Numbered from the stretch's first letter, positions 3,273-50,212 are shown. The stretch: 64,000 nucleotides of DNA from an uncultured Klebsiella sp. (GCA_964478755.1 CAYZJP010000004.1:16738-80737); one strand, 5' to 3'. Numbers and translations are program-made. Notes: generated by a model from the letters alone, not told the origin.

Positions 3273-3404
3273 GAGTGTTGCCGGTGGCGGATGTTCGGGT
3301 TGCGCGGCGGCATCATGGGCACGAACACGCAGAAGGCTGCCAGCAAATTGCGTCGAAATTCTGCCTGAGCAAGAGGCTTTTCCCGGCTCAGTCCGTTCTC
3401 CGGG

Positions 3405-7930: not shown

Positions 7931-7941
7931 CTTCGTTCCAT

Positions 7942-8004
7942 GTTCAAGGTTCAAGGTTCCAAGTGAGCCGCCCAACCTTGAACTTTGAACCTTAAACTTT
8001 GAAC
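7942..8004. repeat. tandem-heptamer hairpin: GTTCAAG-type units (7942-7963) opposed by CTTGAAC/CTTTGAA units (7976-8004)
   Basis: Read directly. There are three units in one arm and four in the other, with an approximately 12-nt loop. It fills the 80-nt gap between two co-directional genes and may also act as a terminator. Confidence 0.8.
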
Positions 8005-31560: not shown

Positions 31561-33033
31561 ATGCGCCCACACCACACCTTCCGCCCGCAGCCGACCCCTT
31601 GCGGACGCACACGCAGGGAATTCCTCTGGCAGGCTGGCGCGGGGTTCGCCGGACTGGGACTGCTCGACCTTCTCCTGCGCGATGGCTTCTTCTCCACCGC
31701 ACAGGCGGCGTCGCCCGCCGCCACATCCCCGCTGGCTCCGCGTGTGCCGCACTTCGCGGCGAAGGCCAAGCACGTCATCTTCCTCTTCATGAACGGTGCG
31801 CCCAGCCAGGTGGACACCTTTGACCCCAAGCCCGAGCTGGCGAAGCACCACGGGCAACCCTACGCCGGCAAGGTCAAGGCCGTCGGCTCCAATGGCCGTC
31901 CCGTGGGCTACCTCATGCAGTCACCCTTCGCCTTTCAGCCCCACGGGCAGAGCGGCCTGCCCATCAGCAGCCTGTTCCCCCACACGTCAAAGTTCGCCGA
32001 TGACCTCTGCGTGCTCCGCTCCCTCTACACGGACACGGCGGCGCACGCCTCGGGATGCCTTCAGATGAACACAGGCAGCATCTTCATCGGCAAGCCCAGC
32101 CTGGGCGCGTGGCTCAGCTATGGCCTTGGCTCCCTGAATGCCGTCCTCCCGAGCTTCGTGGTCATGACGGACCCGCGCGGCGGGCCTATCGGCAGCGCCT
32201 CGAACTGGACTGCCGGCTACATGCCCGCTGCCTATCAAGGCACGCTCTTCCGTAGCAAGGGCAGCCCGCTCCTGGACCTCTCGGCCCCGGAGGGTGTCAC
32301 CCCGCGCGGCCAGCGGCGTTCCCTTGACCTTCTCAGGGAGTTGAACGAGCAGCACCACCGTGACCGTCCGCAGGAGAGCGAGTTATCCGCGCGCATCCTC
32401 TCCTATGAGCTGGCGTATCAAATGCAGACCAGTGCGGCGGGCATCGTGGATTTGAAGGACGAACCGGCAGCCACCCGCGAGCTATACGGCCTTGACCAGC
32501 CGCTCACCGCCGACTTCGGCGCCAAGTGCCTGCTGGCCAGGCGGCTGGTGGAGAAGGGGGTGCGCTTCGTGCAGCTCTACTCAGGCGGCGGCCATCTGGA
32601 GGACACCTGGGACGGCCACAGCGATTGCACGAAGAACCACACCCTCCATGCCGGCGAGACCGACCGCCCCATAGCCGCGCTCATAACGGACCTCAAGCGG
32701 ACGGGCCTCTGGGGTGAGACGCTGCTCGTGTGGGGCGGGGAGTTCGGCCGAACGCCTACCAGTGAGGGCGTCGGCAAGCCGGGCCGCGACCATAACTGGC
32801 ACGGTTTCTCAATGTGGCTGGCCGGGGGGGGCGTGCGCGGAGGGCAGGCCATCGGGGCCACGGATGACTTGGGCTTCGAGGCGGTGGATGACCGGCACCA
32901 CGTCTCCGACCTGCACGCGACCGTCCTGCACCTCATGGGCCTCGACCACGAGAAGCTCACGTATTTCTACCAGGGCCTGGAGCAGCGCATCACCGGCGTG
33001 CGCGGGGAAGTCATCAAGCGAGCGCTGGCGTGA
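31561..33033 (+). CDS. DUF1501 domain protein (sulfatase-fold, Tat-type signal)
   Basis: Motifs are RREFLWQAGAGFAGLGLL, FLFMNGAPSQVDTFDPKPE and WGGEFGRTP...GRDHN. Confidence 0.9.
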   Translation: MRPHHTFRPQPTPCGRTRREFLWQAGAGFAGLGLLDLLLRDGFFSTAQAASPAATSPLAPRVPHFAAKAKHVIFLFMNGAPSQVDTFDPKPELAKHHGQPYAGKVKAVGSNGRPVGYLMQSPFAFQPHGQSGLPISSLFPHTSKFADDLCVLRSLYTDTAAHASGCLQMNTGSIFIGKPSLGAWLSYGLGSLNAVLPSFVVMTDPRGGPIGSASNWTAGYMPAAYQGTLFRSKGSPLLDLSAPEGVTPRGQRRSLDLLRELNEQHHRDRPQESELSARILSYELAYQMQTSAAGIVDLKDEPAATRELYGLDQPLTADFGAKCLLARRLVEKGVRFVQLYSGGGHLEDTWDGHSDCTKNHTLHAGETDRPIAALITDLKRTGLWGETLLVWGGEFGRTPTSEGVGKPGRDHNWHGFSMWLAGGGVRGGQAIGATDDLGFEAVDDRHHVSDLHATVLHLMGLDHEKLTYFYQGLEQRITGVRGEVIKRALA

Positions 33034-33080
33034 GGCGATTTTCCGTGGTGTGGTTCATGCGGGCTAAGGCGGAGGGAAGG

Positions 33081-33341
33081 TCACCAAAGTGGTGCCCATA
33101 GCTCCATGTATGCTTGCACTGGGCCTAACAGGCCGGGTGGCAAATAGTCGAACGGAAGATAAACGAGGTTGAAGGTCTTCCTGCTATCTTGATCATGATT
33201 TAGCAGCCACCAGGCAGGCCCGATGCTCAAAACGTAGAGCACGAATGCGAGCACAGCACTCATGATTAGGCGCACGTAGGAATTGCCGGAGCCGCCCGGT
33301 GCGGAGGAATCGTCGTCGCGCTCTGGCGGGGTGTGGCTCAT
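33081..33341 (-). CDS. hypothetical small membrane protein (MSHTPPERD family)
   Basis: It is an 86-aa ORF with one or two TM segments. A paralogous, frameshifted copy lies at 50241..50503, and the first 28 nt of the two are identical. Confidence 0.55.
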   Translation of the reverse strand: MSHTPPERDDDSSAPGGSGNSYVRLIMSAVLAFVLYVLSIGPAWWLLNHDQDSRKTFNLVYLPFDYLPPGLLGPVQAYMELWAPLW

Positions 33342-33401
33342 GCGGGTTGGCGCTTGAAAATAGTGCGCACGTGGCGTGGGTCAAGGCCACGGGCCGAAAA
33401 G

Positions 33402-35834
33402 TCATTCCCGCACCGTCGCGGAGAGCTTCTGCTTCAGCGCGTCCACGGCCTTCGCGTGTGCTGCGTTCACGTCGGCATCAGTCAGCGTCTTGTCAGCGGC
33501 GCGGTAGGTGAAGGCGTAGGCGAGGCTCTTCTGGCCGGCAGGGACGTTCTTGCCACGGAATATGTCGAACAGCTCCACACTCTCCAAGTTCGCGGGCTTG
33601 GCTTGCTTCACGGCCATCAAGACGGCGTCGTGCGTCGTTGCCTCTGCTACGAGCATCGCCACGTCGCGACGGCTTGCGGGGAACTGCGGCAGCGGCTTGA
33701 AGGACTTGTTTCGGTTGCCGCGCGCGAGGAGTTCGTCGAGGCGAAGTTCCGCGAGGAAGACGGCGTCGCGCAGGTCGTATTGCTTCGCGAGCGTCGGGAG
33801 AAGCTGCCCGAGTTCGCCGAGTTGGACCTTGCCGCCGAGCGTGATGGCGGCGGATTCAAGGAAGAGCGCGTTCGGCTCGGCGCGCTTGCCGAACTGCACG
33901 CCGCGCAGGCCGAAGTGCTCCAGCACATCCTCGACAAGCCCCTTCAAGTCCATCGCGTCAAACTTCGCATCGCGGTCGTCGCCGCTCCAGAAGGCGGGCG
34001 CGCGCTGGCCGGTCAGGGCGATGGCCACGCGGCGCTCCTCCTTCGGCTGGCCGTTCACGCTCGTGAACACGCGGCCCATCTCGAACAGCGCCACATCGTT
34101 GTTCTTGCGGTTCAGATTGTGCCGCAGGGAGTGGATGAGTCCCGGCAACAGCGACGGCCGCAGCACGTCCATGTCGGAACTCAGCGGGTTCGAGAGCGCT
34201 ACGACTTCTTCTGACTTCTGACTTCTGACTTCTGACTTCCCAATCAGCGTCTGCCCCTGTGCCTCGTTCAGCCCGAGGCCGGTGAGCAACCGCCGCACGG
34301 CGGCGATTTCGTCATACACGGCATCGAACGCATTAGTGCCAACCGCGCCGCGCGGGGCGGTGCTGGGAATCTTGTCCACGCCGTGCAGCCGGGCGATTTC
34401 CTCGATGAGGTCCACCTCGCGCTTGAGGTCCACGCGGAAGGTGGGGATGGAAAAGGTTGCCGATTGCGGATTGCCAGTTGCCGATTGAGTGAGGCCGAGG
34501 CTGGTCAAAAACTTCGCCTGCTGCTCCGGCGCGATGGCGAGGCCGAGCAACTCGTCGGTCTTGGCAAACCGCAGGGAAATTTCCTTCGCCTTCGCAGGCT
34601 GCGGGAAGGCATCCACCACGCCCGGCACGAGCGTGCCGCCGGCAGTTTCAAGGACGAGCTGCGCCGCGCGCTGGCTCGCGTAGTCCGCGATGCCGACATC
34701 GCAGCCGCGCTCGAAGCGGTAGCTGGACTCGCTGCGCAGGCCGAGGGCCTTGCTGGTGCGGCGGATATTCGTCGGCGCGAAGTAGGCGCTCTCGATGAGC
34801 ACATCCTTCGTGTCGTCGCGAATCTCCGTGTTCACGCCGCCCATCACGCCCGCAAGCGCAATGCCCTTCTGCTCGTCGGCGATGAGGAGCATATCGCCGG
34901 TGAGCGCGCGCTCCTGATTGTCGAGCGTCTTGAACTTCTCGTCCGCCGCCGCGCGACGGATGACGATAGTGGGTTTGCCATCCGCGCCCTTGGCGATGAG
35001 GTGATAATCGAACGCGTGCAGCGGCTGGCCAGTTTCCAGCATGACGTAGTTCGTCACGTCCACCACGTTGCTGATGCTGCGGATGCCGACCTTCTCCAAC
35101 GTCTGCCGCAGCCAGTCGGGACTCGGCCCGACCTTCACGCCCGTCACGACGCGCGCGGTGTAGCGCGGGCAAAGCTCAGATTCTTCCAAACGCACTGCGA
35201 CGTGCTCCTGAATTCCGACTCCTGACTCCTGACTTCTGACTTCAGGCACCTTCAACGGATTCCCCGTCACCGCCGCAATCTCCCGCGCGATGCCGATGAC
35301 GCTGTTCAAGTCCGGTCGGTTCGGCGTGACTTCGAGGTCATACACCACGTCGCTGCCCGCACGGCCCAGATGCTCCGCGAACGGCTGACCTACTTTCGCG
35401 TCCGGCGGCAGGATGATGATGCCGTCGCCGTCCTCGCCGAGGCCGAGTTCCTTCTTCGAGCACATCATGCCCTGGCTCACGACGCCGAAGACTTTGCGCT
35501 CCTTGATGACGAACGGCTCCTTCTCACCGGCCTTCAGCGGCAGCGCGAAGTTCGGGAGGATGAGCGCGACCTTGTCGCCCGGCTGATGGTTGGGCGCGCC
35601 GCAGATGATGGTGCGCTCGCCGGTGCCGTCGTGGACGCGGTTGACGGAGAGCTTGTCCGAGCCGGCGACCTTGTCCTTCGCGAGCACTTGCGCGACGACG
35701 ACGCCCTCGAACTCGCCGCCGAGCCGCTGCACGCCCTCGACTTCGAGACCGAGCATCGTGAGCCGCTCCGCGAGTTCCGCTGGCGACCAGTTGAAATCAA
35801 CGTATTGCTTGAGCCAGTTAAGGGTGACTTTCAT
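33402..35834 (-). CDS. pheT: phenylalanine--tRNA ligase beta subunit
   Basis: The protein starts MKVTLNWLKQYV. It has a tRNA-binding OB domain, B3/4, B5 and FDX-ACB regions, and CPRYTARV. Confidence 0.93.
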   Translation of the reverse strand: MKVTLNWLKQYVDFNWSPAELAERLTMLGLEVEGVQRLGGEFEGVVVAQVLAKDKVAGSDKLSVNRVHDGTGERTIICGAPNHQPGDKVALILPNFALPLKAGEKEPFVIKERKVFGVVSQGMMCSKKELGLGEDGDGIIILPPDAKVGQPFAEHLGRAGSDVVYDLEVTPNRPDLNSVIGIAREIAAVTGNPLKVPEVRSQESGVGIQEHVAVRLEESELCPRYTARVVTGVKVGPSPDWLRQTLEKVGIRSISNVVDVTNYVMLETGQPLHAFDYHLIAKGADGKPTIVIRRAAADEKFKTLDNQERALTGDMLLIADEQKGIALAGVMGGVNTEIRDDTKDVLIESAYFAPTNIRRTSKALGLRSESSYRFERGCDVGIADYASQRAAQLVLETAGGTLVPGVVDAFPQPAKAKEISLRFAKTDELLGLAIAPEQQAKFLTSLGLTQSATGNPQSATFSIPTFRVDLKREVDLIEEIARLHGVDKIPSTAPRGAVGTNAFDAVYDEIAAVRRLLTGLGLNEAQGQTLIGKSEVRSQKSEEVVALSNPLSSDMDVLRPSLLPGLIHSLRHNLNRKNNDVALFEMGRVFTSVNGQPKEERRVAIALTGQRAPAFWSGDDRDAKFDAMDLKGLVEDVLEHFGLRGVQFGKRAEPNALFLESAAITLGGKVQLGELGQLLPTLAKQYDLRDAVFLAELRLDELLARGNRNKSFKPLPQFPASRRDVAMLVAEATTHDAVLMAVKQAKPANLESVELFDIFRGKNVPAGQKSLAYAFTYRAADKTLTDADVNAAHAKAVDALKQKLSATVRE
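34203..34240 (-). repeat. TCTGACT x4-5 tandem heptamers (AGTCAGA on the coding strand), in frame inside pheT
   Basis: Read directly. The run encodes KSEVRSQKSEEV. Confidence 0.85.
35206..35247 (-). repeat. TCCTGAC-type heptamers x6, in frame inside pheT
   Basis: The units are TCCTGAA TTCCGAC TCCTGAC TCCTGAC TTCTGAC TTCAGGC. The run encodes PEVRSQESGVGIQE. Confidence 0.85.
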
Positions 35835-36055
35835 TTTAATTTTGAGTCCGCAAGGACGGCTTGGCTTCGGTAGGCGCTTGGATTTTCGCTGAGTCGGCCA
35901 CGTTGCACTCCAATGACGTATGCTTCGCAACACGCCGCACAAAGCCTCCGCTTGGAATCCCCGGCTCGACGAACGGATACCTGCACCGTCTTGATGGCTT
36001 CGCTCTCACAAAACCGGTTGTCGCAGTATTTCGTCTTCATCGCTTTGCAGAGCAT
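35831..36055 (-). CDS. hypothetical Cys-rich small protein (possible zinc ribbon)
   Basis: It has the pattern CDNRFC...CAACC. Its stop overlaps the pheT ATG (ATGA at 35831-35834). It starts 3 nt after the upstream ORF's stop. Confidence 0.45.
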   Translation of the reverse strand: MLCKAMKTKYCDNRFCESEAIKTVQVSVRRAGDSKRRLCAACCEAYVIGVQRGRLSENPSAYRSQAVLADSKLK

Positions 36056-36058
36056 CCT

Positions 36059-36946
36059 TCACGAAAAGCTTCCGAGAAATGCAATGGCTTCGGCACGCTT
36101 TGGGAAAGTTGCCTCAATCTTCGCTCCGGTGTTGAACCGCACTTGGATTTCAAACGCCTCGCGTTGTTCGCCGTAGTCACGCAATCGATACGACTTCCCC
36201 TCCTTGACCAAATAGGCAATCGCGCTCCGAACATCGGAGCACTCCACCGAGTGTCCGCGCAACACGGTCAGTCGAACCGAAGCCACTTGACGGTTGAGCG
36301 CGGCTTCAAGGCGCTGTTTGAAATCCGAAATCTCATGTTGGTGCAACGCATGGAGTTTCGCCAGCAGACGATTGGTCGCCTGTGGTTGTGGCAGCGATTC
36401 CCATCTCCCAATCTTTTGCCGAAACTGCCGCTCAGTTGTGCCGCCCGCGCCATCTTCAGAGGAAGCGTCAATGCCGAGTTCCCGAAACGCAGCCAGAATC
36501 GAGTCGTAAGGGATATGCAACACGCCAAAACCTTTCGATTCCAACTGATGCAGGGCGCTTCGCGTGAACTCGCCCGCCAACACCGCACCGCAGAACGGTT
36601 GATGCCGTGAGAACGTCAATGCGACGGGCATGACCGCCGCTTCGATTTCTTGCACCTTGTTCTTCGAGTGCTTCGTGTATCGTCGCCATGCCGACTCAAT
36701 GAAAGCGATGGGAACACCAAGCGCCTCTTCGGTTCCACCGCGCTCCAAGACGTAGTCGAGGTCGTGCTTGTTCCCGTAGCCGTCCTGCCAAGTCACTTTG
36801 CCTTGGCCATCCCGCGTGGCGCGTGGCCGCTTGAAGTCAAGGTAGAGCCCGTGCCGCTGCGCAACTTCGCCAAGGATGTTACGGACGAGCACTTCCAAGC
36901 TGTCGCCGATGATTTGTCCCCAACGATGAGCGAGTGATTCGGCCAT
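36059..36946 (-). CDS. hypothetical protein, candidate PD-(D/E)XK restriction endonuclease partner of the adjacent methyltransferase
   Basis: The call rests on its position 11 nt downstream of the methyltransferase, and on an N-terminal HDLDYVLE...IAFIESAWRRYTKHSK segment compatible with a D...ExK-like core. The motif is not canonical, and no other similarity was recognised. Confidence 0.45.
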   Translation of the reverse strand: MAESLAHRWGQIIGDSLEVLVRNILGEVAQRHGLYLDFKRPRATRDGQGKVTWQDGYGNKHDLDYVLERGGTEEALGVPIAFIESAWRRYTKHSKNKVQEIEAAVMPVALTFSRHQPFCGAVLAGEFTRSALHQLESKGFGVLHIPYDSILAAFRELGIDASSEDGAGGTTERQFRQKIGRWESLPQPQATNRLLAKLHALHQHEISDFKQRLEAALNRQVASVRLTVLRGHSVECSDVRSAIAYLVKEGKSYRLRDYGEQREAFEIQVRFNTGAKIEATFPKRAEAIAFLGSFS

Positions 36947-36957
36947 GATGTCTCTTG

Positions 36958-38319
36958 TTAGCCGCAGACCCAAAGATGTCCCTCGCAGAGCGGCACGCGG
37001 TGCTTACGGTTCTTCCACTTGTTGTTCCGGTCACGAAGCTTCTCGAATGTCCACGACTCAAAGCCAGCGGCCAACGCCAGCTTGCCGAGCCATTCGACGA
37101 CCGGCACGTAAACGCCATACGGCGCGGAATCGCCGATGACGAAACACACCTCGGAAGGTGATGCACACACTCGTCGCAGCGCCTTCCACGTCTGCGCCAT
37201 GTCGAGGAAGTAGCACGCGATCATGTTGTTGTAAGTCTTCTTGCCCCCACGTTCCAACCGCACTGAAGAAAGCTCGCGGCAAACCGGCACGATGTCGTCG
37301 CGGATGGGCACGAGTTCTGGCGAGGCAAGAATTTCATCCAAGTTGACGGAGTTTGGCGGGACGTGTTGCGAGCAGGCACGCACAAGATGCCGCCGCACCG
37401 TTTCTTGCAAATCCCCCCAGCCCCGGATCTCCCCCATAAAGGCCATCTCCAAACGAGTAGCATCAGCGTAGTCGTAGTTGTTTGCGTAGGGCGGCGAGGT
37501 GATGACCATCGTTGCCCATCGATCCGATACAGTCGCGCATTTGCGGGCGTCATCCGCGCGCAACTTCGCAACCGGTTTGGCATGGCGGGCCATGAAACGA
37601 ATGTCGGCGGCGATCATCTGCACTGTCTTGTGCAAAGCGACCTCAGGAGATGGGGGCACCGTTTTGCGTCGTCCTGGCAGCACGTATTGCCACGGTGCTG
37701 TGCCGGCCTCAGACACCACGCGCAGTGAAGATACGAGCGCCATCCAAAGCAGTTCGGCCTCGGGGGTGCCGTCCTGCTCCCGCTCAACAGCTTGTCGGAA
37801 GCAATCGAGGTATCTCAATGTCTCCTGCCCATAACACTTCTGGATGATTTCCGGGTAGTGCTCTGTTTCAGATTCTGCCTTCCGAGCTCGTTTGAATGCG
37901 CTGTCGGCCTTTGAATTGAAATGCCCGGAATCGGTAGTGTAACTCAACTTGGCCCGTGCAACGCGATGCACGAAGGGATGCGCCTCGATGCCAATGGACG
38001 GCACGCCCATTTCATCGCACGCAAGGCACGTTGTGCCCGAGCCGACAAACGGGTCGAGGACGCAAAGATCGCGGCCTTTACGCTCCGCCAACAACCACTT
38101 CACCCATTCCGCAGAAAAGCCCGCGCTGTAACGGAACCACCGGTGGACCGGCAGCCGCATATTGTCGAGAAAGTTGGAGGTATGGCCAACGAAGTCCAAT
38201 TTTGGGCGACCTTCTTTGACCTCGTGATCGGCTTCAAACAAGTCGAGAACGGCTTGTCTGTAATCATCGCGTAGGCGCGGAAGAACCCCATCACCTTCCT
38301 TTGGCTCTGGATATTTCAT
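36958..38319 (-). CDS. DNA methyltransferase (N6-adenine or N4-cytosine; SPPY type)
   Basis: The AdoMet motif LDPFVGSGTT lies about 170 aa before the catalytic motif ITSPPYANNYDY. An HRWFRYSAGFS segment, typical of these enzymes, is also present. Confidence 0.8.
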   Translation of the reverse strand: MKYPEPKEGDGVLPRLRDDYRQAVLDLFEADHEVKEGRPKLDFVGHTSNFLDNMRLPVHRWFRYSAGFSAEWVKWLLAERKGRDLCVLDPFVGSGTTCLACDEMGVPSIGIEAHPFVHRVARAKLSYTTDSGHFNSKADSAFKRARKAESETEHYPEIIQKCYGQETLRYLDCFRQAVEREQDGTPEAELLWMALVSSLRVVSEAGTAPWQYVLPGRRKTVPPSPEVALHKTVQMIAADIRFMARHAKPVAKLRADDARKCATVSDRWATMVITSPPYANNYDYADATRLEMAFMGEIRGWGDLQETVRRHLVRACSQHVPPNSVNLDEILASPELVPIRDDIVPVCRELSSVRLERGGKKTYNNMIACYFLDMAQTWKALRRVCASPSEVCFVIGDSAPYGVYVPVVEWLGKLALAAGFESWTFEKLRDRNNKWKNRKHRVPLCEGHLWVCG

Positions 38320-38372
38320 TGAGGAGGCAATATGCCCGTGAGTTTACTTCGCTCGCAAACAAACGCGAGTTT

Positions 38373-38448
38373 TCAGAACTGCCTCAAAAACCGCACATCA
38401 TTTTCGTAGAACAGCCGAATGTCCGTGATGCCGTAGCGGAGCGTGGCG
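38373..38448 (-). pseudogene. displaced copy of the last 24 codons plus stop of pheS
   Basis: It matches 39127-39202 at 71 of 76 nt and translates to ATLRYGITDIRLFYENDVRFLRQF*. Confidence 0.85.
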
Positions 38449-38466
38449 TTGGGTTGGTTCATCGGT

Positions 38467-38844
38467 TCAGAGCGCCCTCGCCAGCGGCATGATGTCATTG
38501 AAGTGACCATCTTTGTGCTCCAGTTCGATCTCGTGATGCACCGCGCAGGCGACGATGAGGATGTCCGCCGCCGGGATAGTCTTGCCCTTGTCGCGGCAGC
38601 GCACTGCCAATTTGTGTGCCAGTTCCCAGACTACTGATGTGGTTTCGAGGCGGGGCGCAACGGCGGAGAGATCGGCGAGCTTGCGCTTCTCCTCGGCCCC
38701 GCGAGCGCCGTTCCAAAGTTCCAGCATGACCATGTCACACCACGCGGCCTCGTCGTCCAAAACAAGCTCCTCGACCCGCTCGCCGACCTCGCTCAGGCCC
38801 GGGCGCAGGTATTCCACCCATGCGGAGGTGTCCACGAGTTTCAT
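38467..38844 (-). CDS. vapC: PIN-domain toxin VapC
   Basis: The protein starts MKLVDTSAWVEYL, with acidic PIN residues. Its ATG overlaps the vapB stop (ATGA). Confidence 0.8.
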   Translation of the reverse strand: MKLVDTSAWVEYLRPGLSEVGERVEELVLDDEAAWCDMVMLELWNGARGAEEKRKLADLSAVAPRLETTSVVWELAHKLAVRCRDKGKTIPAADILIVACAVHHEIELEHKDGHFNDIMPLARAL

Positions 38845-39065
38845 GTGGTCTTCGCCCACTTGGCATCCTCGCGCATGACCTTGAGGTCATCCTGGGTCAT
38901 GAAGTCAACGAACGTGCCCTTGATTTTTGCGTTTAACTCCCGGAGCCGCTGAAGCCGGTTAAACTTCTCCAGCGCGGTGACGACGGCGTCCCGCTTGGTC
39001 TTGGCGTTGGTCCGCTTGATGGTTTCGCGCAGCAGCTTGTCGGGAATATCAATTGTCGTCTTCAT
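38841..39065 (-). CDS. vapB: VapB-family antitoxin
   Basis: It is a 74-aa protein starting MKTTIDIPDKLLRE, typical of VapB/DUF2191-type antitoxins, and lies upstream of a PIN gene. Confidence 0.75.
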   Translation of the reverse strand: MKTTIDIPDKLLRETIKRTNAKTKRDAVVTALEKFNRLQRLRELNAKIKGTFVDFMTQDDLKVMREDAKWAKTT

Positions 39066-39087
39066 GCATCCAGTATCCGGGACATTG

Positions 39088-39116
39088 GGATTCCGTCAAA
39101 CAGCGATTTGGAATCC
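39088..39116. promoter_or_regulatory. candidate vapBC operator: GGATTCC-N15-GGAATCC
   Basis: A 7-bp inverted repeat lies 23-51 nt upstream of the vapB ATG. TA antitoxins usually autoregulate through such palindromes. This evidence is weak. Confidence 0.3.
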
Positions 39117-39126
39117 TTCTTCATCC

Positions 39127-40155
39127 TCAAAACTGCCTCAAAAACCGCACATCATTCTCGTAGAACAGCCGGATGTCGGTGATGCCGTAGCGGAGCATGG
39201 CGATGCGCTCGATGCCGAAGCCGAAGGCCCAGCCGGTCCAGACCTCGGGATCGTAGCCGACGTTCTCGAAGACTTGCGGGTGCACCATGCCGCAGCCGGC
39301 GATCTCCAGCCAGTCCTTGCCGAGCTTCTTCACGAGCGCGTTGGTGAAATCAATCTCCAGGCTCGGCTCGGTGTAGCTGAAGTAGTGCGGTCGGAAGCGG
39401 AGCTTCACGTCGCTGCCGAGCACGTCCTTGAACACGGCTTCCACAGTGCCTTTGAGGTCGCCGACGGTGACGTTCTTGTCCACATAGAGGCCCTCGATCT
39501 GGTGGAAGGTCGGGTTGTGCGTGGCGTCGGCGTTGTCGCGGCGATAAACGCGACCCGGCACGATGATGCGGATGGGCGGCGGCTGCGACTGCATCACGCG
39601 GATTTGCACGGAGGAGGTGTGCGTGCGAAGCAGTTGAGAGTTCTTAGTTGAGAGTTGAGAGCCGGAAGCTGGCGCGACGTAGAATGTGTCTTGGCTGTCG
39701 CGCGCGGGGTGGTCGGTGGGCGTATTCAGCGCATCGAAGCAGTGATACTCGTCCTCGATCTCCGGGCCGTCGGCGACGGCGAAGCCGACTTTGCGGAACG
39801 CGCGGACGATGTCGTCGGTGACTTGCGTGAGCGGATGCAAGCGGCCCACGGCGCGGCGGCGGCCGGGGAGCGTCCAGTCGGTCGGTTCCTTGGGCAGCGC
39901 GGCCTTGAGTTCGAGTTCGCTGCGACGCACGGCGAGTGCGGCTTCGAGTTCGACTTTCGCGGCGTTGATGGCTTTGCCGGCGGCGGGGCGATCTTCCTTG
40001 GGCAGCGAGCCAAGCTGCTTCATCAGCGCGGTGAACTTGCCATCACCGCCGAGGAACGCGCCTTTGGTCTGCTCCAGCGCGGGCAGGTCGGTGGCGGCGG
40101 CGAGGGCGGCGAGCGCCTCAGATTTCAAAGGGTCGAGCTGGGCCAGGAGTGACAT
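39127..40155 (-). CDS. pheS: phenylalanine--tRNA ligase alpha subunit
   Basis: Motifs are HPLTQV, DTFYV, LLRTHTSSVQIR, GRVYRRD and GFGIERIAMLRYGI. Confidence 0.93.
   Translation of the reverse strand: MSLLAQLDPLKSEALAALAAATDLPALEQTKGAFLGGDGKFTALMKQLGSLPKEDRPAAGKAINAAKVELEAALAVRRSELELKAALPKEPTDWTLPGRRRAVGRLHPLTQVTDDIVRAFRKVGFAVADGPEIEDEYHCFDALNTPTDHPARDSQDTFYVAPASGSQLSTKNSQLLRTHTSSVQIRVMQSQPPPIRIIVPGRVYRRDNADATHNPTFHQIEGLYVDKNVTVGDLKGTVEAVFKDVLGSDVKLRFRPHYFSYTEPSLEIDFTNALVKKLGKDWLEIAGCGMVHPQVFENVGYDPEVWTGWAFGFGIERIAMLRYGITDIRLFYENDVRFLRQF
39633..39660 (-). repeat. GTTGAGA-type heptamers x4 (TCTCAAC on the coding strand), in frame inside pheS
   Basis: The units are GTTGAGA GTTCTTA GTTGAGA GTTGAGA. 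The run encodes SQLSTKNSQL, just before the conserved LLRTHTS. Confidence 0.85.
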
Positions 40156-40241
40156 GACGTTGCAGGGAGTTTTATAAGAAGGGCAGGAGATAAGGAATCA
40201 AAGACTTGCGGCGAAACATCTCTTGCGCTCCTGTTTTCCTC

Positions 40242-40279
40242 AAAAAAAAACGGGCGGCCCGTCTGCGGGGCCGCCCGTC
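40242..40279 (-). terminator. intrinsic terminator between rplT and pheS
   Basis: On the minus strand the sequence is ACGGGCGGCCC-cgcagac-GGGCCGCCCGT followed by T9, giving an 11-bp perfect GC stem. Confidence 0.7.
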
Positions 40280-40300
40280 GCTTGAGGGGTTGGAACTTGG

Positions 40301-40684
40301 TCAGGCCTTCGCGAGCGTGGCGGCGGGCTTGGCCGCGAGCGCGGTCTTCGCGGCGTTGATCAGCTCGCCAAACGCGGCGGCGTCGGTGGCGGCGAGGTCG
40401 GAGAGCACCTTGCGGTCGAGGCCGATCTTGGCGGCCTTGAGACCTTCCATGAAACGGCTGTAGGTCAAACCGGCCTCGCGGACGGCGGCGTTGATGCGGA
40501 CCTGCCAGAGGCGGCGATAGATGCGCTTCTTGGTCTTGCGGTCGCGGTAGGCGTATTGCCGCGCGTGGTCAACGGCGTCGGAGGCGTAGCGGTAAAGTTT
40601 GGAACGCTTGAGACGGAAGCCTTTGGCGGCTGTCAGAATGCGTTTACGACGTTTGCGGGAGGCGGGAGCGTTAGTGACGCGCAT
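40301..40684 (-). CDS. rplT: 50S ribosomal protein L20
   Basis: The translation MRVTNAPASRKRRKRILTAAKGFRLKRSKLYR... is unmistakably L20. Confidence 0.95.
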   Translation of the reverse strand: MRVTNAPASRKRRKRILTAAKGFRLKRSKLYRYASDAVDHARQYAYRDRKTKKRIYRRLWQVRINAAVREAGLTYSRFMEGLKAAKIGLDRKVLSDLAATDAAAFGELINAAKTALAAKPAATLAKA

Positions 40685-40714
40685 GGATCAGTGAGTAGTT
40701 GAAAGTTGAACGGC

Positions 40715-40924
40715 TCAGTGGCTGAAGGGCAGGCTCGACGTGATGCGATAGGCGTCGGTCTTGGACACGAGGGAACGTTTGCCGAGGGAGCGACGACGCT
40801 TGGCGCTCTTGCCGGAGAGCAGATGGCGGCGGCCGGCGCGGGACCGGAGAATCTTCCCGGTGCCGGTGATCTTGAACCGTTTGGCGACGGATTTTTTGGT
40901 CTTAATGCCTTTGGGACGACGCAT
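40715..40924 (-). CDS. rpmI: 50S ribosomal protein L35
   Basis: The translation shows KGIKTKKSVAKRFKITGTGKILRSRAGRRHLL. Confidence 0.95.
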   Translation of the reverse strand: MRRPKGIKTKKSVAKRFKITGTGKILRSRAGRRHLLSGKSAKRRRSLGKRSLVSKTDAYRITSSLPFSH

Positions 40925-41014
40925 AAATTGAACTGGTTCTCAAAAAAGAGGGCGCACTGTAGGCAACGGACACAGGCGGTGCAAGGGGTAATTTCGCCAA
41001 TGACGAAGGCACGC

Positions 41015-41998
41015 CTACGCGCTGCCCAGCAGCGCCAGTTCCGCCCGCGTCATCTCCTCGATCAACTGCCGGAACGTGGTTGTCGGCTCCCAGTTCAGGA
41101 GGCGGCGGGCCTTGGCGGGGTTGCCTTGCAGGCGCTGCGGCTCGGCGGGACGCAGGAGGCGGTTGTCTTTGCGGACGTGCTGCCGCCAGTCGAGGTTCAT
41201 CGCGGCGAAGGCCGTCTCCACCACGTCCTGCACGCTGTGGAGCTTGCCGGTGGCGAAGATGTAATCCTCGGCCGTCGCGTGCTGGAGCGAGAGCCACATG
41301 CCACGCACGTAATCCTTGGCGAAGCCCCAGTCGCGCTTGGCGGAGGTGTCGCCGAGGAGCAGTTCCTTCTGCTGGCCGAGCTTGATGGCGGCGGCGGCGC
41401 GGCAGATTTTCCGCGTCACGAAGTTTTCGCCACGGCGCGGCGACTCATGGTTGAACATGATGCCGTTGACCGCGAAGTGCCCGAAGGTCTTGCGGTAGAT
41501 CGTGACCATCTGCGCGGCGAAGGCCTTGGCGCAGCCGTAGGGATTCACCGGCGCGAAGGGCGTGTTCTCGTCCTGTGGCATCACGGCGGGCTGGCCGAAG
41601 ATTTCCGATGACGCGGCGTGGAAGAAGCGCGGCTTGCGCCTCATGTCCTGCACCATCTCCAGCAGGCGCAGCGTGCCCATCGCGGTGAGATCGCACGTGG
41701 ACTCGGGAATCTCGAAGCTCAGGCCGACGTGCGACTGGCCAGCGAGGTGATACAGCTCGTCTGGCTCCACGGACATGAGCACGCGCCGCATCGTGGTCGG
41801 GTCGTCGAGGTCGGCGTAGTGGAGGAAGAGGCGTTGCCCGTAAATCTTCGGGTCGCGATAGAGATGGACGAGGCGCGAGCGTTCGAGCGAGCTGGTGCGG
41901 CGCACCATGCCATGGATTTCATAGCCTTTCTCCAGGAGCAATTCGCTGAGGTAGGAGCCGTCCTGGCCGGTGATGCCGGTGATGAGTGCGCGTGGCAT
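41015..41998 (-). CDS. gmd: GDP-mannose 4,6-dehydratase (copy 2)
   Basis: Motifs are [52 protein letters not shown] and [11 protein letters not shown]. Confidence 0.9.
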   Translation of the reverse strand: MPRALITGITGQDGSYLSELLLEKGYEIHGMVRRTSSLERSRLVHLYRDPKIYGQRLFLHYADLDDPTTMRRVLMSVEPDELYHLAGQSHVGLSFEIPESTCDLTAMGTLRLLEMVQDMRRKPRFFHAASSEIFGQPAVMPQDENTPFAPVNPYGCAKAFAAQMVTIYRKTFGHFAVNGIMFNHESPRRGENFVTRKICRAAAAIKLGQQKELLLGDTSAKRDWGFAKDYVRGMWLSLQHATAEDYIFATGKLHSVQDVVETAFAAMNLDWRQHVRKDNRLLRPAEPQRLQGNPAKARRLLNWEPTTTFRQLIEEMTRAELALLGSA

Positions 41999-43131: not shown

Positions 43132-43788
43132 CTACGTCCTCACCCCGACGCGCGGGCAAAGCTCCTTCAACTCACAGCCGTCGCAGTCCGGCTTGCGCGC
43201 GTCGCACCGCCGCCGCCCGTGCCAGATCAGCCAGTGGCTGAACTGCGCCCACTGGGCGCGCGGCACGAGTTTCATCAACGCCTGCTCGATTTTTTCCGGC
43301 GTCGTCTCCTTCGTCAGCCCGAGCCGCCGCGAGAGCCGCGCGACGTGCGTGTCCACGACGACGCCCACGTTGATGCCAAACGCATTTCCCAACACCACGT
43401 TCGCCGTCTTGCGGCCCGCTCCGTCGAGCGCCGTGAGTTCCTCCATCGTGCGCGGCACCTCGCCGCCGTGGCGCTCGACAAGCTTGCGGCAGCAGGCCTG
43501 GATGTTCTTCGCCTTGTTCCGGTAAAACCCCGTGCTCCTCACCGCCAGCTCCAAGTCCGCGAGTGGCGCGTCCGCGAAGTCCTGCGCAGTGCGATAGAGC
43601 TTGAACAACTCCGCCGTGACCACGTTCACACGCTTGTCCGTGCATTGCGCCGAGAGGATCGTTGCGACCAGCAACTGCACCGGATTCGCGTGGTTCAGCT
43701 CACAATAGGCGTCCGGGTAAGTGCGCTGGAGCACGGTGATCACCTGTGCCGCGTGGCGTGCTTTTGCCTCAAATGACAAATGATTCAC
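43132..43788 (-). CDS. nth: endonuclease III
   Basis: It has an HhH-GPD region ([17 protein letters not shown]) and a 4Fe-4S cluster ([17 protein letters not shown]). The GTG at 43788 is preferred. The alternative GTG at 43845 would overlap the divergent czcC start. Confidence 0.87.
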
Positions 43789-43835
43789 GTGACATGATTT
43801 GGCCGTGCAGAATAGTGTCCGGGGCGTTCGCGTCA

Positions 43836-45311
43836 ATGCAACCACGCCGCACTGAAATCTTCCCGCGCCGGGCTGGTGATGTCCTTGCCGCAGGCCTTTC
43901 CCTCGCCCTTCTCGCCGGTTGCGCCACCTACGAGCCGAACCCGCTCGTGCCCACGGAGACGGCGGCGGCTTTCGAGAAGCGCTCGCTTGAATCGCCGGAG
44001 CTGCGGAAGTTTATTGAAGAACAATTGGGGCGCGAGTTGAACGCCTGGCCCCCGGACGCGCAAGCACCGGGCTGGACGCTGAACTTGCTGACGCTGGCCG
44101 CTTACTACTACCAGCCTTCGCTCGACGTCGCCCGCGCGAACTGGGCGGAAACCCGCGCGGCGCTGATTACCGCCGGCGGCCGGCCAAATCCAATCGTCGG
44201 CATTCAGCCCGGATACAATTTCAACCCCGCCGCCGGCGCGCTTTCGCCGTGGATTCCCGGCGCCACGATTGACTTGCCGATTGAAACCGCTGGCAAACGT
44301 GGGTATCGCGTGACGCACGCCCGTCAGCTTGCCGCGGCCGCCCGCTGGCAACTCGCTGGCGTCGCGTGGCAGGTGCGCGCAGGCGTCCGCGACGCCTTAC
44401 TTAATTTCAGCGACGCGATGCGGCGCGAGGAATTGCTGGGCGAACAATTTCGTCTGCAGGAACAGTGGGTCGCGCGCTTGCAGCAGCGCGTCGAGGCGGG
44501 CGCGATTCCGCGCGCCGATGTCACGCCCGCGAAGATTACCTTGGAAAAGCTGCGGCTCGAAGTCGCCGGCCTGCGCCAGCTCAAGGGCGAATCCACTGTG
44601 CGACTCGCCGAGGCCGTCGGCATTTCTGTCGCCGCTTTGAATCAAGCAAAAGGCATCGCGCTCGCCTGGAACTTCCCTGTGGCGACAAAACTCACCTCCG
44701 AGGCCGCGCGCCAGCGTGCCTTAACGCATCGCACCGATGTCGCCGCCACGCTCGCCGAATACGAGGCCGCGCAGACCGCGCTCCAGCTTGAAATCGCCAA
44801 GCAATATCCCGACGTGCATCTTGGCACGGGCTACCAGTGGGATCAGGGCGAAAGCAAATGGTCGTTCCCCAACCTCTCCGCCGAGCTGCCCTTGCTCAAC
44901 CGCAATCAGGGTCCCATCGCCGAAGCGCAAGCGCGCCGCGCCACGGCCGCCGTGCGCGTGGAAGCGGCGCAGGCCAAGGCCATCACGGAAATTGATGCCG
45001 CGCTGGCGGCGCACCAAGCCGCGCGTGGACGGCTCGGCACGATGGAGCTTTTGGCCGCCGAGCAGGAAAAACAGGCGGCCGCCATCGAGGCGCAGGCCCG
45101 CGCCGGCGCGTTGGACGGACTCGACTTGATCTCCGCGAAGATTGAGCTGGCGCAACTTCATCTCGCACAATGGGACGCCGGGGTGAAGGCGTTGCAAGCG
45201 GCGGGCCGCCTCGAGGACGCGCTGCAAACGCCACTCGAATCGGAATCCACCGCCGCGGCACCGGGCAACTTCATCGAGACAAATCCGCGCACCCAAAAGC
45301 AGCAGCCATGA
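43836..45311 (+). CDS. TolC/CzcC-family outer-membrane efflux protein
   Basis: It has a lipobox (LLAGC) and two OEP repeats with the typical coiled helices. It is first in the operon with the MFP and CzcA-like pump. Confidence 0.8.
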   Translation: MQPRRTEIFPRRAGDVLAAGLSLALLAGCATYEPNPLVPTETAAAFEKRSLESPELRKFIEEQLGRELNAWPPDAQAPGWTLNLLTLAAYYYQPSLDVARANWAETRAALITAGGRPNPIVGIQPGYNFNPAAGALSPWIPGATIDLPIETAGKRGYRVTHARQLAAAARWQLAGVAWQVRAGVRDALLNFSDAMRREELLGEQFRLQEQWVARLQQRVEAGAIPRADVTPAKITLEKLRLEVAGLRQLKGESTVRLAEAVGISVAALNQAKGIALAWNFPVATKLTSEAARQRALTHRTDVAATLAEYEAAQTALQLEIAKQYPDVHLGTGYQWDQGESKWSFPNLSAELPLLNRNQGPIAEAQARRATAAVRVEAAQAKAITEIDAALAAHQAARGRLGTMELLAAEQEKQAAAIEAQARAGALDGLDLISAKIELAQLHLAQWDAGVKALQAAGRLEDALQTPLESESTAAAPGNFIETNPRTQKQQP

Positions 45312-46621: not shown

Positions 46622-47008
46622 ATGATGCTGGAGCACGAGGAACTGACGGGGAAGATTATTGCGGCGGCGATTCGGGTTCACAAGGAACTCGGACCGGGCT
46701 TCGTCGAGTCCATCTACGAGGAGGCGATGGCGATTGAACTAACGGCGTCAGGCATTCCGTTCGAGCGGCAGAAGTTGATTCGCGTGCTCTACAGCGGCCA
46801 GCCTGTCGGAGAGCATCGGCTGGACTTGCTCGTGGACAAACTCATCGTAGTCGAGCTGAAAGCCGTGAGTGAACTGCCAGACGTGTTCTTCGCGCGCACT
46901 CGTTCCTATCTCAAGGCGTTGGATCTGAACCACGGCCTGATCTTGAACTTCGCCACCATGCCGCTCACAATCAAACGTGTCCACCGCGAGCCATCCCACA
47001 ACGCCTGA
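46622..47008 (+). CDS. GxxExxY protein (PD-(D/E)XK nuclease-like, PDDEXK_3)
   Basis: It is 128 aa with GPGFVESIYEEA (the G-x-x-E-x-x-Y motif) and DLLVD...VVELK (D...ExK). Confidence 0.85.
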   Translation: MMLEHEELTGKIIAAAIRVHKELGPGFVESIYEEAMAIELTASGIPFERQKLIRVLYSGQPVGEHRLDLLVDKLIVVELKAVSELPDVFFARTRSYLKALDLNHGLILNFATMPLTIKRVHREPSHNA

Positions 47009-50000: not shown

Positions 50001-50212
50001 CGGGCGAACGCCTCGTGCCCATCCTGATGACCGCGCTCGTCACCGGCCTCGGCCTGCTGCCGCTCGCGATCCACAGCGGCGAGGCCGGCGCGGAAATCGA
50101 AGGCCCGATGGCCATCGTCATCCTCGGCGGCCTCGTCACCTCCACGGCGCTTAACCTCCTCGTCCTCCCGACGCTGGCGCTCAAGTTCGGGCGCTTCGCG
50201 AAGCCTGCTTAG
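47084..50212 (+). CDS. CusA/CzcA-family heavy-metal efflux RND pump
   Basis: It is 1042 aa. The N-terminus is MLSRIVSFSLRHRGIVVALA, and GEVVDDAIIDVENIF and the typical HME-RND organisation are present. Confidence 0.92.
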   Translation: MLSRIVSFSLRHRGIVVALACLLLGYGLYVARHAKLDVFPDFVPPQVTVQAEAPGMTPEQVEALVTRPIETAVNGLGYLESLRSESIQGVSVVTVVFKEGTDILPARQLLAEKLGTVAAQLPAGVTAPTMSPLVSSTMDLLKVGLVSEKLSPMELRTFADWTLKPRLLSVPGVTRCITFGGEVRQLQVQVKPDRLIAHDLGLQDVLAAARLATGVRGAGFVETQNQRILIQTEGQALTPVVLSEVVVTHKDGVPVRLKDVANVVEGAEPKFGDFIVQGKPGVLLALASQFGANTLDATHELEAALEEMKPVFEREGITVFPALHRPATFIEESLKSIKHSLLLGGVLVAVVLFVFLGHFRTAFISVTAIPLSLLGAIVVLDKFGVTLNTITLGGLAIAIGEVVDDAIIDVENIFRRLRENQLAAAPRPMFAVILGASLEVRTAVVYATFVVALVFVPVLTLTGLQGKFFAPLALAYIIAIMASLLVALTLTPALAFLMFGRGVREAKEPWLQARLKRLYLAALGRIAKSPGVVIALVVLVVAAAAFKLPGMGKEFLPEFREGHFVLQVSAAPGTSLAEMLRIGKNISEELLKDAHIATVEQQVGRASQGEDTWSPHRCEFHVELKPGTPGEEQEVLMKEIRELLGKYPGIQFEVLTFLGDRISESISGETAAVVVNVFGDDLEAIDKGAGDIAKLLEKIPGAKDVQMKSPPGGPRLAVKLLPERLTRYGFRPLEVLEGVQAAYQGVVVAQSYRGNQVADVAVILAGAAQTEPELVGGLMLRNSAGLRLPLRELAEVRSATGRALISHEGARRRQTVTCNVARPDQDPHGRDVASFVADAKRQVEAKVKFPRGVYPQFAGEAEAREKAQQQILLHSAIAAVGILLLLSVVFKTARNLLLVLANVPFALVGGALFVVLAGLFDADAGALNIGSLVGFVTLFGITMRNSIMMISHYEHLVVEEGMPWGLDCALRGAGERLVPILMTALVTGLGLLPLAIHSGEAGAEIEGPMAIVILGGLVTSTALNLLVLPTLALKFGRFAKPA

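Follow-up and report, generated by a model that had tools for sequence, protein, structure and literature searches.

In this verrucomicrobium, a member of subdivision 3 (Limisphaerales/Pedosphaera group), the junction between pheS and pheT is probably a recombination hotspot that collects small cassettes on the operon strand. Within the window, i.e. the whole 64,000 nt stretch of DNA that was analysed, the two genes are separated by 3292 nt, whereas they lie 20–21 nt apart in the closest relatives (L002, L010, L051 and L181). Judged from its sequence, this interval consists of at least three separately acquired units: a VapBC toxin-antitoxin pair, a Type II restriction-modification (R-M) pair and a gene for a zinc-ribbon-like protein (Table 1). 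The individual genes are ordinary and it is their location that is of interest.

The original prediction, that an insert of lower GC content splits the two genes, was borne out, as the insert had a GC content of 57.3% compared to 64.4% for the whole window. Every gene that it listed was found, in the same order and on one strand: pheS, vapB-vapC, a 79 nt remnant of the pheS 3′-end, a methyltransferase with an SPPY motif, a 295-amino-acid ORF, a Cys-rich ORF and pheT. Its reading of these as a single selfish insert did not hold, since at least three units make it up and each is found apart from the others in other genomes.

Table 1. Features of the pheS-pheT region, in the order of transcription (positions are those of the window)
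Feature	Position	Strand	Basis
Intrinsic terminator-like hairpin	40249..40279	-	12 pairs + T run; rplT-pheS intergenic region
pheS, intact, 342 aa	39127..40155	-	Pfam tRNA-synt_2d 3.4e-98
Direct repeat copy, final 79 nt of pheS	39127-39205	-	Repeat search
Promoter-like site of vapBC cassette	39072..39099	-	TTGACG-16-GATACT, GGATTCC-type repeats either side
vapB antitoxin, 74 aa	38841..39065	-	PF09957 1.4e-8
vapC PIN-domain toxin, 125 aa	38467..38844	-	PF01850 2e-10
pheS 3′ remnant, last 24 codons + stop	38373..38451	-	92% identity to 39127-39205 over 79 nt
Type II DNA methyltransferase, 453 aa	36958..38319	-	PADLOC MTase_II PDLC03306 1.9e-128; PF01555 5.1e-11
Type II restriction endonuclease, 295 aa	36059..36946	-	PADLOC REase_II PDLC03525 3.6e-56
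4-Cys zinc-ribbon-like gene, 69 aa	35831..36040	-	Conserved MKTKYC start; 74 aa if ATG 36055
pheT, intact, 810 aa	33402..35834	-	Pfam B3_4, tRNA_synthFbeta, FDX-ACB, B5, tRNA_bind

Three units between pheS and pheT

The start codon of vapC overlaps the vapB stop codon as ATGA, and a PIN-domain toxin gene following a small overlapping antitoxin gene (PF01850 and PF09957) is the arrangement of VapBC type II systems, with which the pair agreed in sequence, order and spacing; only its location is notable. The NCBIfam VapC model matched at 1.2e-19 and 70.7 bits, below its 80-bit cutoff. Just 5′ of vapB, and 27 nt past the pheS stop codon, there is a sigma-70-like site, although Verrucomicrobia promoters are poorly defined. 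A corresponding architecture (TTGACA-17-TATTTT with GGATTCCAAAT repeats) was found at an equal distance from vapB in 10 loci and in L023, such that vapBC appears to carry its own conserved candidate promoter of the autoregulatory type. As this site is kept in relatives, the insert is probably not promoter-free.

Together with the end of pheS itself, the pheS 3′ remnant can be read as a long target duplication bracketing vapBC, of which it would be the right-hand copy. The unit between the repeats encoded no further gene and no mobility gene, the repeat exceeded 30 bp and the empty sites in L002, L010 and L051 contained a single copy of the 79 nt sequence, which is the pattern termed insertion with long target duplication. 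Locus L001 had only vapBC and the remnant, joined in exactly the same way and with a native-like spacer thereafter, and in L023 the vapB promoter, vapBC and pheT stood alone as a unit apart from pheS.

In the window, the R-M pair starts directly at the stop codon of the pheS remnant and is compositionally foreign. The third-codon-position GC content was 0.57–0.67 in the methyltransferase, endonuclease and Cys-rich genes, 0.83–0.85 in pheS, pheT and rplT, and 0.79–0.80 in vapBC. In the methyltransferase, an insert of ~180 amino acids separates motif I (DPFVGSGTT), on its N-terminal side, from motif IV (SPPY), on its C-terminal side, which gives one amino-methyltransferase both an AdoMet-binding motif (FxGxG) and a catalytic motif, (D/N/S)PP(Y/F). 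The PADLOC match covered residues 46–453, and the enzyme had 43% identity to one encoded on small Erwinia plasmids. The separate endonuclease gene follows after 11 nt, and residues 1–294 of its product aligned end to end with positions 1–287 of the 288-position REase_II profile; searches of this protein against Pfam, NCBIfam and the PDB gave no match. It has more than 3100 homologues, with the methyltransferase always adjacent in 60+ loci, and the pair is found elsewhere in the genome in ~40 other Verrucomicrobiota as well as on Erwinia plasmids. Because the 295-amino-acid ORF appears to be a full-length Type II endonuclease, the middle of the insert would be a standard, widely mobile R-M pair, agreeing with Type II systems in sequence, order and spacing and notable only for where it sits. 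The nuclease-like ORF had thus been taken correctly for a defence gene, as it falls in a restriction endonuclease family, and the Pfam and PADLOC matches likewise agreed with the earlier naming of the modules as VapBC and R-M.

The first ATG of the Cys-rich ORF (36055) does lie 3 nt after the endonuclease stop codon, as predicted, but the conserved MKTKYC start at 36040 is the more likely one on sequence grounds. Third-position differences in this gene (671) exceeded those at positions 1 and 2 (227 and 195), a coding signature which argues that it encodes a real 4-Cys protein. Consistent with the prediction that it fits no recognised family, no match was obtained in Pfam, NCBIfam or PADLOC; the protein belongs to an uncharacterised and unannotated family, represented in Planctomycetota and Verrucomicrobiota, which forms 236 clusters at 50% identity. 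In Planctomycetota, its members make up the N-terminal domain of larger proteins found in different contexts. An AlphaFold model made with a deeper alignment (pLDDT 79.7) predicted a beta-hairpin zinc ribbon and a helix, for which a structure search found no fold match. The stop codon of the gene overlaps the pheT start codon (ATGA, 35831–35834), and this had been taken as a meaningful coupling. The overlap is found in this genome alone; in relatives the gene ends ~6–10 nt before pheT or, in some, other genes intervene. The region joining the two genes had no significant structure (z = +1.5).

A strand-biased hotspot across the clade

Comparison of 57 related loci, nearly all from metagenome-assembled sequences and with insert ORFs called by a simple longest-ORF rule, revealed inserts of 0.66–8 kb at the junction in 47; pheS and pheT were adjacent in the remaining 10. 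The cargo ranged from defence genes and toxin-antitoxin pairs to genes for carbonic anhydrase, PAP2, phosphodiesterase and methyltransferase. Because ordinary enzyme genes fill the same junction, such an arrangement is not restricted to the addiction modules for which it had been proposed. The methyltransferase, endonuclease and Cys-rich genes were all present at the junction in L012/L134, L084 and L106, and the first two without the third in L100 and L110. Some relatives had the R-M pair but no vapBC. The genes of this insert are partly shared at the junction by five other lineages, but the copies there lack native composition.

The insert ORFs were strongly biased towards the pheST strand, with 110 (25.8k amino acids) on it and 31 (3.8k amino acids) on the opposite strand. 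Among the ORF clusters seen in at least two gaps, 25 of 27 had the pheST orientation, and the remaining two were antisense shadows of vapBC. Ten opposite-strand ORFs gave no credible match when searched against Pfam (the lone sub-threshold match was to a herpesvirus glycoprotein model), and independent gene calls for L081–L087 placed all gap genes on the pheST strand. In L023 and L038 pheT was unlinked from pheS, and in ~14 further loci there was no pheT within ~9–10 kb downstream of pheS, which shows the operon link to be dispensable in the clade.

Many cassettes were bounded by partial copies of the gene ends, these being 24–85 nt of the pheS 3′-end or 26–104 nt of the pheT 5′-end. The pheT remnants ended at 26, 31, 43, 66, 75, 87–93 and 104 nt. 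Approximately 11 pheS remnants, behind at least five cassette types, started 73–77 nt before the stop codon, a clustering that random illegitimate joints alone fit poorly. Many cassette junctions measured only 0–15 nt, and in pheS and pheT alike third-codon-position diversity dropped with proximity to the junction. A Pfam scan of the operon and insert genes plus 10 flanking ORFs (~13 kb each side, spanning ~21.7–50.2 kb of the window) detected no recombinase, integrase or transposase, and hence no intI. The joints between the methyltransferase, endonuclease and Cys-rich genes and pheT (0–18 nt) held no attC, and of the 25 longest inverted repeats listed none lay in the insert.

These features suggest that the three cassettes likely arrived in separate events. 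Recombination would be anchored in the highly conserved pheS and pheT ends with the other joint illegitimate, thereby producing the partial duplicates of these ends in a pattern of insertion with long target duplication. Here, this would have left vapBC bracketed by the 79 nt pheS 3′ duplication, followed by the R-M pair and then by the zinc-ribbon gene running into the pheT start codon.

Expression of pheT and other readings of the locus

A scan of the minus strand of the insert for terminators found two weak 5-pair hairpins, both within the methyltransferase ORF, and the scanned region had 11 terminator-like hairpins compared to 10.7 expected by chance; the claim that no terminator separates pheS and pheT was thus upheld. 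The sole strong terminator of the scan is the hairpin between rplT and pheS, which gave a weak, sub-threshold Rfam match and is the upstream boundary of the pheS transcription unit. Across the related loci, strong operon-strand terminator-like sites numbered 8 in 97 kb of insert, whereas 25 of 79 loci had one within 260 nt 5′ of pheS. As the cassettes are co-oriented, free of terminators and abut pheT, pheT is probably transcribed by read-through from the pheS and vapB promoters. The cassettes would then be expressed as operon passengers, and they may draw some stabilising benefit. Of the prediction that pheT has no separate promoter, the part that stands is that there is no room for a dedicated one; a candidate lies 5′ of vapB, and since Verrucomicrobia promoters are poorly defined, others within the methyltransferase, endonuclease and Cys-rich genes are possible. 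Similarly, the predicted dependence of pheT on read-through is plausible, but the pheS promoter would not be required for it, given the vapB promoter and the arrangement in L023.

It was originally proposed that one selfish insert, made up of toxin-antitoxin and R-M modules, is wired into pheT so that its loss costs the cell an essential synthetase subunit, an anchoring favoured by selection. We consider this rather unlikely. Co-orientation, the lack of a terminator and the overlap with pheT all agree with it, as do the position of pheT directly behind vapBC and its promoter in L023 and the frequency of toxin-antitoxin pairs and R-M systems among the junction cargo. However, the parts are found independently, non-addictive enzymes occupy the same junction with equally tight tiling, and the overlap is confined to this genome. 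Precise deletion would bring back the native pheS-pheT spacing and not kill pheT, and loss appears to be tolerated because the closest relatives have empty sites and the 79 nt repeats permit clean excision of vapBC. An artefact of assembly, in the form of a chimeric join at the 79 nt repeat, is extremely improbable. The window is probably from a metagenome-assembled genome and repeats of such size can mislead assemblers, but independent assemblies, made from different samples, share the joints of the pheS stop codon with the vapB promoter, of vapC with the remnant, of the remnant stop codon with the R-M leader, and of endonuclease, Cys-rich gene and pheT.

The clustered remnants could instead point to an integron-like site-specific system with a recombinase acting at a CCATGCTC[C/G]G core, which is present in the pheS 3′ and pheT 5′ ends. 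The ~11 pheS remnants start no more than 4 nt from CGCCATGCTCC, several pheT remnants stop 5–9 nt beyond CACCATGCTCGG, and the cassettes are in a single orientation and promoter-poor, as in integrons. We regard such a system as distinctly improbable, as remnants also start or end at numerous other positions across the ranges given above, the short joints between cassettes hold no attC-like element, no integrase or transposase was among the genes scanned, and the boundary clusters may stem from shared descent of one old duplication. Very unlikely, too, is that the Cys-rich ORF is a regulatory or accessory R-M subunit, e.g. a controller protein. It lies 0–18 nt behind the endonuclease in this window, L012, L084 and L106, and behind a D12-class methyltransferase in L022, but it is absent from ~40 loci with the R-M pair, among them L100 and L110, where the pair occupies the same junction, and it is also found beside phosphodiesterase, PIN and TIR genes and AbiJ. 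Its Planctomycetota relatives are domains of larger proteins elsewhere. A controller (C) protein was rejected, as the predicted model had no helix-turn-helix and the gene and the R-M pair each occur without the other.

A hotspot gathering independent cassettes, the reading we prefer, implies that an essential two-gene operon tolerates changing same-strand cassettes across a bacterial order with no mobile-element machinery in sight. The junction would be a natural setting in which to examine how accessory genes are gained and lost by core operons, whether newly acquired defence genes are generally expressed by read-through from housekeeping promoters, and how long target duplications originate. 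The locus also draws attention to the zinc-ribbon family of Planctomycetota and Verrucomicrobiota.

Comparison with known systems

Insertion of R-M genes with long target duplication, including inside operons, has been described by Furuta, Abe and Kobayashi 2010 (PMC2853133), where Nobusato et al. 2000 and Sekizaki et al. 2001 are cited on the same theme. As in those insertions, a small defence or addiction unit without a transposase or integrase lies within an operon-like gene pair, with a GC content below that of the host and a direct target duplication of >30 bp over the stop codon that leaves the target gene intact. In contrast to them, the duplication here brackets a toxin-antitoxin pair and not the R-M pair, duplications occur on both flanks, at the 3′-end of pheS and the 5′-end of pheT, and the same junction has been reused throughout an order by cargo of many types.

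Variable defence cargo at a fixed core-gene position is also a feature of the defence hotspots of E. coli, which are integration sites of mobile islands (PMC10121019), and of cDHS1 in P. aeruginosa, where a pheS, pheT and rplT cluster neighbours many defence systems in a region also containing ihfA, a MerR-family gene and a proline tRNA (PMC10250203). The passage on cDHS1 does not put it between pheS and pheT. The units here, unlike those of such hotspots, are single cassettes of 0.3–3 kb on one strand, tiled within an essential two-gene operon and devoid of mobility genes.

Integron cassette arrays are similar in being co-oriented, tightly packed, mostly promoterless and of mixed function, including toxin-antitoxin pairs, with expression expected from an upstream promoter. 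They differ from this locus in having intI, attI, attC and a fixed core, where here the boundaries are gene-end duplicates of varying length. It is tempting, although only tentatively, to view the pheST operon of Limisphaerales as a recombinase-free counterpart of the integron. Its conserved gene ends, possibly through the CCATGCTC[C/G]G core, would serve as anchors for operon-oriented, translationally tiled cassettes stripped of terminators and mostly of promoters, with pheT placed under a toxin-antitoxin promoter in some lineages.

Organisation and composition of the pheS–pheT insert

Analysis of the minus strand of the window confirmed the predicted gene order of the pheS–pheT insert at the coordinates given.

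Features of the pheS–pheT region in operon order
Feature	Position	Strand	Remarks
rpmI, rplT		minus	5′ of pheS in operon order
Strong terminator-like hairpin	40249–40279	minus	Between rplT and pheS
pheS	39127–40155	minus	
vapB	38841–39065	minus	Pfam family match
vapC	38467–38844	minus	Pfam family match; start overlaps vapB stop
pheS 3′ remnant	38373–38451	minus	79 nt, 92% identical to 39127–39205
Methyltransferase, 453 aa	36958–38319	minus	PADLOC Type II methyltransferase, 1.9e-128
Endonuclease, 295 aa	36059–36946	minus	Begins 11 nt past methyltransferase; PADLOC Type II endonuclease, 3.6e-56
Cys-rich ORF	35831–36055	minus	
pheT	33402–35834	minus	ATG overlaps Cys-rich ORF stop as ATGA

The insert was 3292 nt in length with a GC content of 57.3%, compared to 64.4% for the window. 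GC3 was 0.83–0.85 in pheS, pheT and rplT and 0.79–0.80 in vapB and vapC; the values for the methyltransferase, endonuclease and small Cys-rich (Cys) genes were 0.67, 0.64 and 0.57 respectively. An Rfam scan of 33000–41500 returned sub-threshold matches only. An ATG at 38461–38463 (minus) frames the pheS remnant as a possible 29-aa ORF (38373–38463), and the same layout was present in the comparison locus L001.

Two runs of GTCAGAA heptamers were found within pheT (34209–34253 and 35199–35257, minus; seven matches compared to 0.23 expected). Translated, they give SEVRSQKSE-like peptides, located in the two PheT loops that vary most, and the EVRSQKSE peptide was also present in one or other loop in several other lineages. 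Additionally, a small PD-(D/E)XK_3 gene (46622–47008, plus strand; PF13366, 2e-35) was flanked by an outer-membrane efflux protein gene (43746–45311) and an AcrB-family gene (47084–50212), possibly a further case of a small gene having entered an operon.

Occupancy of the junction in relatives

The host group is Verrucomicrobia subdivision 3 (Limisphaerales/Pedosphaera group). Comparison of the junction in relatives, as the original prediction had proposed, revealed it to be empty in the closest ones (L002, L010, L051 and L181), where pheS and pheT were 20–21 nt apart, which argues for insertion. Partly filled junctions were also found. L001, with a 95% identical PheS, carried pheS, vapBC, the remnant and pheT and lacked the restriction-modification (R-M) pair; its junctions equalled those of the window and a native-like spacer preceded pheT. 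L012/L134 encoded pheS followed by a HicA-like gene with its partner (a HicB-like antitoxin by Pfam, from cluster representatives), the remnant and then methyltransferase, endonuclease, Cys gene and pheT. The stretch from methyltransferase to pheT was also found in L084 and L106, and in L100 and L110 the methyltransferase and endonuclease genes preceded pheT with the Cys gene absent. As these units occurred separately in relatives, the 3.3 kb insert is, judged from sequence comparison, made up of three or more units that move independently of one another.

Among 57 loci encoding both genes on the same strand, pheS and pheT were adjacent in 10 and separated by 0.66–8 kb in 47; approximately 14 further loci had no pheT within ~9–10 kb downstream of pheS. 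The two genes were mostly adjacent in distant Verrucomicrobia (metagenome set, PheT below ~65% identity). The junction cargo comprised toxin-antitoxin and defence genes (VapBC, other PIN pairs, HicAB, DUF6036 nucleotidyltransferase, Mrr, XhoI and Eco57I-like R-M genes, Abi_alpha and HNH), enzymes (carbonic anhydrase, PAP2, alkaline-phosphatase-family, and SAM and phospholipid methyltransferases) and a 2396-aa CotH/LTD protein. The operon strand encoded 110 of the ORFs in these gaps and the opposite strand 31 (25.8k compared to 3.8k aa); ten of the latter, checked against Pfam, yielded no credible match. The operon strand also carried 25 of the 27 ORF clusters present in at least two gaps; the remaining two were antisense shadows of vapBC. 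The cassettes, small gene units filling the junction, were tiled with gaps of 0–15 nt, and the last lay no more than 15 nt from pheT in most loci. Literature searches returned no earlier description of a hotspot between pheS and pheT.

The rplT–pheS spacer was also enlarged (0.6–9 kb) in 10 of 63 loci (L017, L022, L033, L044, L046, L048, L056, L058, L061 and L067), and this junction in L081 contained a Methyltransf_3 gene (3390–4064). The hotspot behaviour may thus extend along the rpmI-rplT-pheS-pheT cluster. In L023 (1–2150), vapBC and its conserved promoter immediately preceded pheT, which lay on the opposite strand from pheS at a distance of ~8 kb; in L038 (1–2500) pheT was unlinked from pheS and had its own upstream region of ~140 nt.

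The R-M pair and the Cys gene

The PADLOC Type II methyltransferase model covered nearly the whole methyltransferase, and the Type II endonuclease model aligned end to end with the 295-aa ORF, bearing out its earlier description as nuclease-like; Pfam, NCBIfam and PDB sequence searches gave no match for the endonuclease. More than 3100 endonuclease homologues were found, and in every one of over 60 genome loci the gene was directly 3′ of the same methyltransferase gene. The pair was also present on 5.9–10.5 kb mobilizable Erwinia plasmids (43% and 36% identity), and ~40 other Verrucomicrobiota hold it elsewhere in the genome. By homology, these two genes form a mobile Type II R-M system of the conventional kind. 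An R-M pair outside pheST in L109 retained the endonuclease–pheT spacer together with 18 nt from the start of pheT (7886–7960), which suggests that this copy left the pheS–pheT junction by illegitimate recombination.

An alignment of eight Cys gene orthologues showed 671, 227 and 195 differences at codon positions 3, 1 and 2 respectively. As differences concentrate at position 3, the Cys ORF is, on this signature, a real gene. RNA folding of the Cys–pheT junction gave no structure and, together with the codon-position signature, this led us to discard an RNA leader or attenuator at the Cys region. The conserved start was MKTKYC (ATG at 36040, 69 aa), the five codons 5′ of it not being conserved, and the protein contained four invariant cysteines (C-x4-C ... 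C-x2-C). AlphaFold modelled a beta-hairpin plus helix (pLDDT 79.7, 70-sequence alignment; a model from only nine sequences, pLDDT 57.7, was unusable). The ORF had been described as matching no recognised family, which agreed with the absence of matches in Pfam, NCBIfam and PADLOC; Foldseek of the model against the PDB gave nothing better than E = 0.2, with generic zinc-ribbon-like matches only.

A profile search placed the protein in a family of 236 clusters (50% identity), seen in Planctomycetota and Verrucomicrobiota in genome searches. In many members the module forms the N-terminal domain of 100–300 aa proteins without a Pfam domain. The Limisphaerales Cys gene was found only within pheS–pheT gaps, with varying neighbours (phosphodiesterase, PIN and TIR genes, AbiJ and a D12-class methyltransferase). 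We take its product to be a small putative zinc-binding protein of mobile-element origin. The Planctomycetota loci (L158–L180) encoded longer Cys-domain proteins in recurring neighbourhoods of unannotated genes, with several copies in some genomes and a ThiF/E1-like gene in one neighbourhood. A mobile-element context is suspected for these genes; a PRTRC-like one was not established, the sole match being generic ThiF-family.

Expression of pheT and origin of the cassettes

The earlier claim that no terminator separates pheS from pheT holds in that none was convincing: the insert had two weak operon-strand hairpins, both within the methyltransferase ORF, and terminator-like sites across the scanned region were at chance expectation. 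Eight strong operon-strand terminator-like sites were found in 97 kb of inserts, and 25 of 79 loci had one within 260 nt upstream of pheS. The insert does contain a vapBC promoter-like site with flanking repeats, which was conserved in position in 10 loci and heads the vapBC-pheT unit, unlinked from pheS, of L023. The earlier claim that pheT has no obvious separate promoter stands: because the last cassette varies by genome and abuts pheT, a conserved dedicated pheT promoter cannot, from the arrangements compared, exist in occupied junctions. Promoters of Verrucomicrobia are poorly known. Given the few insert terminators, the vapB promoter and the lack of a conserved pheT promoter, the most economical explanation is transcription that starts at the pheS and vapB promoters and reads through into pheT. 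Between the rplT terminator and pheS (40155–40250, minus), TTGATT-19 nt-TATAAA ends ~12 nt before the pheS ATG; these elements may form a pheS promoter, whose leader would be very short and whose spacing is beyond the limits of the scan.

Insertion, selfish-type cargo and, probably, co-transcription therefore survive from the original prediction, and a single element does not. That one insert anchors itself by holding pheT hostage was an over-reading, because clean loss is evidently tolerated, non-addictive cargo occupies the same site and the Cys ORF–pheT coupling is peculiar to this genome, with the overlap found in this window alone among the loci compared.

Many cassettes were followed by a partial pheS 3′-end (24–85 nt) or preceded by a partial pheT 5′-end (26–104 nt). 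No recombinase was present among the operon and insert genes and the 10 flanking ORFs scanned (~13 kb each side). Our favoured route is recombination in which pheS or pheT provides the anchor and the second joint is illegitimate, after which whole cassettes would be swapped between relatives via the conserved flanks. Third-position diversity of pheS and pheT declines towards the junction, which fits frequent recombination through the gene ends, with strong protein conservation as a confounder. A preferred recombination site at these ends is conceivable, since ~11 pheS remnants that follow cassettes of at least five types start within 4 nt of one position and CCATGCTC[C/G]G is common to pheS and pheT at modal remnant boundaries. 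However, junctions added from metagenome loci gave broad boundary distributions, so that a strict site-specific att core at this motif is retained as no more than a minority explanation. Comparing both pheS 3′ copies with relatives was uninformative on transfer direction, the remnant simply being more decayed.

The cassettes thus show the pattern of insertion with long target duplication. This mode was reported for R-M units that lack mobility genes; its repeats frequently cover a start or stop codon, and cases of insertion into operons are recorded (PMC2853133). The genes themselves are of known kinds; what is new, compared to known hotspots and to long target duplication, is a recurrent, one-strand, recombinase-free array in an essential operon.
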